Part shown: positions 61,042 through 62,108 of the stretch, one piece after another
Layout: each line of letters opens with the position of its first letter
Position numbering within the stretch: the first letter of the stretch is position 1
Sequence record: PZ495249.1
DNA: 64,000 nucleotides
Source of the DNA: a phage
Reading direction: 5' to 3' (one strand)
Position numbers and translations under genes: made by a program
Notes under the pieces: model-generated
Database searches by the model: none
The model's input: the letters and a program-made list of their open reading frames with translations, nothing else
What the model was told of the DNA's origin: nothing

Positions 61042-61431
61042 ATGGGTTATTTAAATGATACATACATCACACCTACTAAGGATCAATTAAGTATGGCTCT
61101 TATTAAGGTGAAACGTGTGCGCGAACTCTACAAACCAATTAATGAGCGTTTGGAGAAGGAGACAGTAGAGGTTAAAAGTTGGTGGGGTTTACGCCGTAAG
61201 GTGATGACTAAAGATCAGCACATCCGTAAAGCTAACGAAAATTCTTTCATGCCGTTTTATGGTCGTGCATTTCTGCTCGGATACATAACAGCAGAAGAAT
61301 ACCAAATCTGCCGTTTCCTGATGGAGGCTCCAGGAGTGAAGACACTCCAAAAATGGGAAACAGCGGAGAGAGTATATCTTTGTGAAGATGACCACAGACA
61401 GTTGATGTTTGCTTTAACTGAGGAGATTTAA
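61042..61431 (+). CDS. hypothetical protein, 129 aa
   Basis: ATG immediately after the upstream stop. Confidence 0.4.
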   Translation: MGYLNDTYITPTKDQLSMALIKVKRVRELYKPINERLEKETVEVKSWWGLRRKVMTKDQHIRKANENSFMPFYGRAFLLGYITAEEYQICRFLMEAPGVKTLQKWETAERVYLCEDDHRQLMFALTEEI

Positions 61432-62108
61432 TGTCGAAAGTAGTATGGTGTTTATTTGATGGTAGTGGTATTATGGGATTACCCTGGGCTGAGGCTGGAT
61501 ACCAAGTTTATTGCTTTAATGCCAGTAGCGGAGATCACGGAGAGTATGAAATTAAAGTGGATCACCCTTTGATCACTTACGTCGATACTTGGATTGACTC
61601 TACCTTTGATCCAACAGGTATGGGTGACAACGGCGGTGATGCTCCTACGTTTATTATCGGCTTCCCGCCTTGTACAATGCTCGCTGGTAGTGGAGAGCAA
61701 CACGAGCGTACTGCGGAAGAGATCGAAGAGGCGCTTCAAAACGTCCGTATCGTCGAAACTTTGGGTAATAAGTATGGTGTGCCGTGGATGATTGAGAATC
61801 CAGTGGGTAAATTGTCCACACTCTGGCGTAAGCCGGACTACTACTTCGATCCGTATGAGTTTGGTGGTTATCTCCGAAAAGAGGAAGGTAGTTATCACCC
61901 TAAAATGCCAGTACAGGATGCCTATACGAAGAAAACCTGCCTATGGGTAGGCAATGGTTTCGTATTCCCTGATAAAAAACCCGTAGAACATATTGGTTTC
62001 TTCTGGGGATGGCGTTATCTCGGTGGTAAGAGTAATCGAACAAAACAGTTGCGATCTCTCACCCCTCGTGGGTTTGCTCGCGCAGTGTTTAAGGCTAATA
62101 GGAGGTAG
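61431..62108 (+). CDS. short DNA cytosine-C5 methyltransferase-like protein, 225 aa
   Basis: Motif-I-like FDGSGIMG, motif-IV-like GFPPCTMLAGSG (Pro-Cys), motif-VI-like MIENPVGKL; too short to hold a normal target-recognition domain. Confidence 0.4.
   Translation: MSKVVWCLFDGSGIMGLPWAEAGYQVYCFNASSGDHGEYEIKVDHPLITYVDTWIDSTFDPTGMGDNGGDAPTFIIGFPPCTMLAGSGEQHERTAEEIEEALQNVRIVETLGNKYGVPWMIENPVGKLSTLWRKPDYYFDPYEFGGYLRKEEGSYHPKMPVQDAYTKKTCLWVGNGFVFPDKKPVEHIGFFWGWRYLGGKSNRTKQLRSLTPRGFARAVFKANRR

Follow-up and report, generated by a model that had tools for sequence, protein, structure and literature searches.

Background

Can a phage protein of only 225 amino acids, which carries the motifs of a cytosine-C5 methyltransferase (MTase) and falls some 100 residues short of the typical enzyme, methylate DNA, or does it modify pyrimidines in some other way? 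This question is raised by an open reading frame (ORF) at positions 61431-62108 of a 64,000-nucleotide stretch of phage DNA (record PZ495249.1), the whole of which is referred to hereafter as the window. A preliminary description of the locus, made from the letters of the sequence, had offered two interpretations: a minimal MTase lacking a normal target-recognition domain (TRD), and a C5-pyrimidine-modifying enzyme that acts on nucleotides or DNA alongside ThyX and the genes of nucleotide metabolism. The ORF is present exactly as described; the first of the two interpretations is supported and the partnership with ThyX is not. The protein belongs to a compact phage 'Dcm-like' family, keeps the catalytic residues conserved in that family and is modelled with the fold of a C5-MTase catalytic domain. 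The gene (hereafter that of the window MTase) probably encodes an active stand-alone ('orphan') DNA cytosine-C5 methyltransferase dependent on S-adenosylmethionine (SAM), its activity being predicted from knowledge of the family and from the in vivo formation of 5-methylcytosine (5mC) by a homologue of 49% identity.

The compact family, with lengths of 202-260 residues, is among the smallest of the natural C5-MTases; it escapes Pfam PF00145 and is without a solved structure, yet over 1,500 sequenced phages carry it, some of them candidates for therapy against Klebsiella and E. coli. Knowledge of the sites methylated would help predict the evasion of restriction by these phages and their sensitivity to retrons, and the compact enzyme could be a minimal scaffold from which to engineer enzymes that modify cytosine. 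The window MTase adds a new member, 49% identical to a studied enzyme and from another phage lineage.

Family membership and distribution

The window DNA is about 80-83% identical to the Klebsiella phages FKP3 and phi1_175008, and its phage is Stephanstirmvirinae-like (Justusliebigvirus/phAPEC8 group); the syntenic gene of FKP3 carries the annotation 'DNA methyltransferase'. That the motifs noticed in the preliminary description go beyond chance resemblance is borne out by several lines of evidence. Residues 1-224 match PHROG 757 'DNA methyltransferase' with E=5e-82, tblastn searches matched 1,510 phage records, with at least 80% of the protein covered in 1,475 of them, and Cys81 and Glu122 are invariant in 82 family members. 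The matched phages infect Escherichia, Klebsiella, Salmonella, Shigella and other hosts, have genomes of about 39 to 170 kb and include Drexlerviridae of 45-52 kb; the gene is variously annotated in them as 'DNA methyltransferase', 'Dcm', 'DNA cytosine methyltransferase' or 'hypothetical protein'. In metagenome-scale searches, the 90% level yielded 2,580 clusters and the 50% level 1,147 representatives. Among the homologues of at least 195 residues that were collected, 227 of 246 do not exceed 260 residues; small size is thus stably maintained across the family and does not reflect truncation.

The window MTase is a bona fide member of a known and widely annotated family and not a new kind of pyrimidine-modifying enzyme. 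Annotation of the family and an experimental study of one member already exist, of which the preliminary description took no account; both lower the novelty of the locus. What stays interesting lies at the level of the family, namely the choice of the target and the binding of the cofactor with about 18 variable residues and without motif X.

In some relatives, the compact domain is fused to other modules (P0247, P0126, P0218, P0212 and the BFVD entries A0A6J5SE15 and A0A6J5NPY6). An HNH-nuclease-like C-terminal tail follows the MTase domain in P0247, and in two proteins of uncultured phages (1,126 and 1,397 residues) the domain is embedded beside helicase/UvrB-like regions.

Predicted fold

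An AlphaFold2 model built on the 82-sequence alignment has a mean predicted local distance difference test score (pLDDT) of 90.5 and a predicted template modelling score (pTM) of 0.90, and shows the class I SAM-MTase fold of a C5-MTase catalytic domain. In a Foldseek search against the PDB, the MTase domains of DNMT3B and DNMT3A ranked first (E ~2e-7, probability 1.00), followed by M.HaeIII and DNMT1. The top matches are exclusively C5-MTases, whose catalytic domain can be aligned with 173-192 of the 225 residues; the window MTase is therefore essentially a bare catalytic domain. A search of a viral structure library recovered the same compact fold, with a template modelling (TM) score of 0.92 to a 225-residue phage protein, the UniProt names including 'DNA-cytosine methylase'. 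Identity to the catalytic domain of mammalian DNMT3A/DNMT3B is only 13-17%, and the DNMT3 domains, of about 280 residues, are accompanied by regulatory domains and undergo obligate oligomerisation.

Conserved motifs and comparison with canonical enzymes

Conservation was assessed in an alignment of 82 diverse members that are 32-88% identical to the window MTase. The motif I-like, catalytic and ENV-like sequences reported in the preliminary description were all located, in the order given there (Table 1). Four residues, C81, E122, P141 and W172, are invariant, and a further 16 are conserved in at least 90% of the sequences (L8, G23, P79, T82, G88, N123, P124, F139, Y165, K167, T169, P180, R208, P212, G214 and A218); the window MTase retains every one of them. 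The first three conserved blocks are LFDxTG (motif I), FPPCTDLAxSGA (motif IV) and IENPVG (motif VI), and the others are LSTxWRKPDxxFxPxEYGGYL, DAYTKxTCLWTGxGF and LGGxSxxTKxIRSxTPRGFAxAVFxAN, the variable stretches being residues 31-47, 53-73, 148-162 and 179-196. Motif I (F9-D-G-S-G13 in the window MTase) is looser than the canonical FxGxG, with the last Gly alone well conserved.

For comparison, nine canonical enzymes of 302-472 residues were used, E. coli Dcm and eight phage enzymes, in all of which FxGxG, GFPCQ, ENV, QxRxR, RxLTPRE (motif IX) and GN (motif X) are invariant. The window MTase is shorter than the canonical C5-MTases (E. coli Dcm, M.HhaI, M.HaeIII; PF00145) by 77-247 residues, in keeping with the deficit of about 100 residues estimated earlier. 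Profile-profile alignment of the family with the nine-sequence set (E=1.6e-4) places motifs I, IV and VI in register and ends after motif VI. The alignment by hhalign with the single sequence of E. coli Dcm is weak (E=0.11), covers motifs I-VI only and shows no TRD homology; orthology of the window MTase to the E. coli Dcm/EcoRII type is not supported. When the C-terminal halves were compared, global alignment failed and a weak local match (E=0.018) was obtained, with iRSxTPRGFA lying over the RxLTPRE of motif IX.

The two groups differ most after motif VI. QxRxR is absent from the window MTase, which has TKK in its place; a conserved YTKxTCLW block precedes the beta-strand there, and by analogy K167 and K168 are candidate stand-ins for the canonical basic residues. 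In the canonical MTase of phage Kopi about 97 residues separate QxRxR from the Arg of motif IX and 50 more, including GN, follow, whereas in the window MTase about 40 residues lead from K167 to R208, and just 17 remain to the end. No sizeable TRD lies between motifs VIII and IX, and at its site only about 18 variable residues (179-196) are found; on sequence grounds this segment would be the sole candidate remnant of a TRD. The absence of a normal TRD, as previously noted, is thus accompanied by that of motif X. Canonical enzymes close the SAM pocket with motif X and a C-terminal helix, a place that the last helix of the window MTase (residues 213-223) may conceivably take.

A studied homologue and the proposed activity

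In phage K42, which shares 95.4% identity with the BASEL phage KarlJaspers, the trigger of retron Ec86 has been traced to a 711-bp gene for a 'Dcm-like C5 cytosine methyltransferase', and escaper phages had this gene mutated (bioRxiv 10.1101/2023.08.16.553469). Expression of this Dcm raised the 5mC content of the retron multicopy single-stranded DNA (msDNA), as measured by liquid chromatography coupled to mass spectrometry (LC-MS), while that of a C82A/E128A/K175A/K176A mutant did not, K175 and K176 being assigned to substrate binding by superposition on DNMT3A (bioRxiv 10.1101/2023.08.16.553469). The phage Dcm is the accepted trigger of Ec86/Eco1 in later papers. In KarlJaspers (MZ501090.1), the sole C5-MTase is the 711-bp gene bas06_0055, annotated by the same phrase. 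The retron Ec86 preprint reportedly appeared later as Cell Rep 2024;43:114857.

Across its full length the window MTase shows 49% identity to the bas06_0055 (Bas06) protein (E=3e-73), as it does to the Dcm of phage JK16. C82, E128, K175 and K176 occupy exactly these positions in both proteins, and the four residues required in K42 Dcm correspond to C81 (codon 61671-61673), E122 (codon 61794-61796), K167 and K168 of the window MTase. The likeness to the Drexlerviridae Dcm proteins (K42, bas06_0055, JK16) extends to architecture, compact size (225 versus 236 residues), the catalytic Cys, Glu and Lys-Lys, the C-terminal RSLTPRGFARAVF block and the Asn at the position of motif II. The lineages differ, the window phage being a Stephanstirmvirinae-like myovirus of about 145-150 kb and the Drexlerviridae siphoviruses of 51 kb.

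By analogy with the M.HhaI-type chemistry of C5-MTases, the target cytosine would be flipped out, Cys81 (motif IV, FPPC) would attack its C6, and Glu122 (motif VI, ENP) would protonate N3. K167 and K168 would replace the arginines of motif VIII that hold the flipped base and the backbone; the methyl group would then move from SAM to C5, and beta-elimination would free the enzyme. Recognition would fall to the variable loop 179-196, perhaps aided by the catalytic loop. As the immediate neighbours of the MTase gene include none for a partner restriction enzyme, its likely role would be to shield phage DNA from host restriction by methylating it in the course of infection, with the side effect that such an MTase can be sensed by retron Ec86/Eco1. 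Restriction evasion has been suggested by earlier work for Drexlerviridae; in the BASEL study, methyltransferase genes showed no simple correlation with resistance to restriction.

Several observations weigh against an active enzyme of this kind or against what is believed of its specificity. Sequence searches of Pfam, NCBIfam and the PDB with the window MTase gave zero matches, the gathering threshold of PF00145 not being reached and no match appearing even at E<=10. PF00145 touches 8 of the 82 family members, weakly (best E=0.0039), and a family profile run against PDB sequences yielded marginal DNMT2 and M.HaeIII matches only. The acid of motif II, Asp in the family consensus, is Asn30 in the window MTase, as it is in the JK16 and Bas06 proteins. 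The GN of motif X, which forms part of the SAM pocket in canonical C5-MTases, was not recognised in the family or in its longer relatives, the extensions of which are unrelated. The evidence for activity of the homologue consists of in vivo LC-MS and a quadruple mutant, and segment 179-196 diverges from its K42/Bas06 counterpart. The CCWGG specificity of K42 Dcm was assumed from E. coli Dcm, and its only support is the loss of defence on mutation of CCTGG in the msDNA, in a dcm+ strain whose empty-vector msDNA was nonetheless low in 5mC (bioRxiv 10.1101/2023.08.16.553469).

CCWGG is accordingly a proposed specificity of K42 Dcm, not a rigorously shown one. Since segment 179-196 differs from that of Bas06, the target specificity of the window MTase may differ from that of the Drexlerviridae Dcm. 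Avoidance of CCWGG was considered as a clue to specificity and set aside, because the site is enriched instead (125 sites against 79 +/- 7.6 expected from dinucleotide-preserving shuffles of the whole window, with 0 of 100 shuffles reaching 125) and the count does not discriminate between the hypotheses.

Alternative explanations

An unlikely alternative is that the family, having lost the TRD and motif X, recognises DNA unlike the canonical bacterial C5-MTases. One possible form would be a very short or relaxed specificity with near-global methylation of phage cytosines, perhaps involving DNMT3-like oligomerisation; in a rarer variant, an open cofactor pocket could accept a SAM analogue such as carboxy-SAM. 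If recognition were indeed non-canonical, the motif methylated by the window MTase, with its variable loop unlike that of K42 Dcm, would not be CCWGG.

It is very improbable that the protein is MTase-like but degenerate or without catalytic activity, and retained to bind DNA or to serve some other non-enzymatic function. The lack of Pfam and NCBIfam matches, the missing motif X and normal TRD, and the Asn in place of the motif II acid are what such a protein might show, but the catalytic Cys and Glu are invariant in the 82 members with the other conserved positions all kept, and a homologue of the same architecture and with the same Asn is active. The SAM-binding Rossmann core, modelled with high confidence, and the ranking of the structural matches also speak for a functional enzyme.

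Little more can be said for the idea that cytosine C5 receives some group different from methyl, such as carboxymethyl from carboxy-SAM in the manner of CmoX, as a handle for DNA hypermodification, which is considered very improbable indeed; the cofactor would in that case come from the enterobacterial host's own CmoA. The CmoX structure (PDB 8yf3) is a strong match to the model, and CmoX has an Arg in place of the Asn of motif X. This phage DNA cytosine C5-carboxymethyltransferase, however, has 333 residues, a normal TRD and SPPC, carries Arg350 at the position of the motif X Asn and is linked to cmoA and an amide ligase, a signature that the window MTase does not share. Motif IV of the family is FPPC, no cmoA or amide ligase neighbours are linked to the MTase gene, and cmoA+ cells expressing K42 Dcm formed 5mC. 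R208 was examined as a CmoX-type motif X Arg and rejected as the primary reading on account of its pairing with the motif IX Arg and not motif X (in a weak hhalign alignment), the FPPC motif and the 5mC made by the homologue.

That the protein acts not on DNA but, like DNMT2, as a cytosine-C5 methyltransferase of RNA (tRNA) is scarcely probable in view of the ranking of the structural matches, the invariant catalytic residues and the activity of the homologue.

The notion of a nucleotide-level C5-pyrimidine modifier working with ThyX and the nucleotide-metabolism genes can practically be dismissed: the window does contain genes for ThyX, NrdAB and an NT5C-like nucleotidase, but in a separate module 15-20 kb upstream of the MTase gene (Table 1), phage KLPN1 has an MTase 60% identical (E=3e-91) and yet no ThyX, NrdA or NrdB (all E>1), and nucleotide-level C5 pyrimidine modifiers, those of the ThyA and dCMP hydroxymethylase family, have a fold different from that of the DNA C5-MTases which the model matches.

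Gene organisation and neighbourhood

The features of the MTase gene and of other genes of the window are collected in Table 1. The stop codon of the preceding ORF, which encodes the PHROG 16551 protein, overlaps the MTase start codon in TAATG at 61429-61433, and this overlap suggests that the two genes may be translationally coupled. The ORF boundaries are sound, as the nearest homologue (P0001, 99% identical, 237 residues) has the same N-terminus and differs solely in a non-conserved C-terminal tail of 12 residues.

Table 1. Positions of the MTase gene, its motifs and start signal, and other genes in the window
Feature	Position	Strand	Basis or remarks
Upstream gene pair: 309-aa DUF7277+DUF7275 protein (PHROG 2141) and 129-aa PHROG 16551 protein	60112-61431	+	directly upstream of the MTase gene
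Shine-Dalgarno sequence GAGGAG	61420..61425	+	read from sequence; 5 nt 5' of ATG
MTase gene (225 aa, ATG start)	61431..62108	+	ORF list and sequence; PHROG 757 family; C5-MTase fold
Motif I-like SAM-binding loop FDGSGIMG (residues 9-16)	61455..61478	+	conservation; hhalign onto canonical FAGIGG
Motif IV catalytic loop GFPPCTMLAGSG (residues 77-88)	61659..61694	+	Cys81 predicted nucleophile; aligns to canonical GFPCQ
Motif VI MIENPVGKL (residues 120-128)	61788..61814	+	ENP instead of ENV; aligns to canonical ENV; Glu122 predicted N3 protonating residue
Motif VIII-like block DAYTKKTCLWVGNGF (residues 163-176)	61917..61958	+	conservation; beta-strand 169-174 (predicted secondary structure)
Short variable segment (residues 179-196)	61965..62018	+	poorly conserved; indel hotspot, with insertions following residues 186 and 190
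Conserved C-terminal block LGGKSNRTKQLRSLTPRGFARAVFKAN (residues 197-223)	62019..62099	+	RSLTPR resembles motif IX RxLTPRE; no motif X GN after
NT5C-like nucleotidase	39708-40319
ThyX	40640-41611
NrdAB	42397-46098
RmlB-like dehydratase	46571-47566	+	Pfam
RmlA	47575-48501	+	Pfam
RmlC	48450-49019	+	Pfam
RmlD	49016-49852	+	Pfam

Both genes 5' of the MTase gene are syntenic in FKP3. The neighbouring DUF7277+DUF7275, PHROG 16551 and PHROG 8514 proteins all belong to families of unknown function. The neighbours of the MTase gene vary among phage groups, and those in Drexlerviridae differ from those in the window. Just 5' of the gene run containing the MTase gene (60112 onward), an intergenic stretch of 38-39 nucleotides (60008-60046) is 95% identical to the annotated 'terminator' of AHP24, AHS24, AKS96 and others, which are several unrelated 46-kb siphophages of E. 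coli O157. In FKP3, a region corresponding to DNA past the 3' end of the window (L001:12446-15000) is annotated as encoding, on the opposite strand and 4-6 kb downstream of the MTase homologue, a 'COOH.NH2 ligase' and a glycosyltransferase; an HNH endonuclease and a Sir2-like protein are annotated as well. These are gene types known from DNA hypermodification clusters.

Other genes in the window

A second small 'DNA methyltransferase' ORF of 169 residues (53233-53742, + strand) has no Pfam match, and its match to PHROG 799 (E=7.5e-56) is confined to positions 204-372 of the 458 in the profile; it thus has the look of a fragment or of a domain-only protein. The syntenic gene of FKP3 is annotated as a DNA methyltransferase.

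Directly 3' of nrdA/nrdB, four consecutive ORFs on the + strand (46571-49852) make up, by Pfam, a complete dTDP-L-rhamnose pathway, all with E<=1e-72; in a phage, such a pathway might serve the glycosylation of DNA, the virion or the host surface. An ORF of 220 residues (54006-54668, + strand) matches PHROG 125 'DNA invertase' and serine-integrase families (E=1e-29), and this DNA invertase-like gene stands in what is otherwise, by appearance, a large virulent myovirus.
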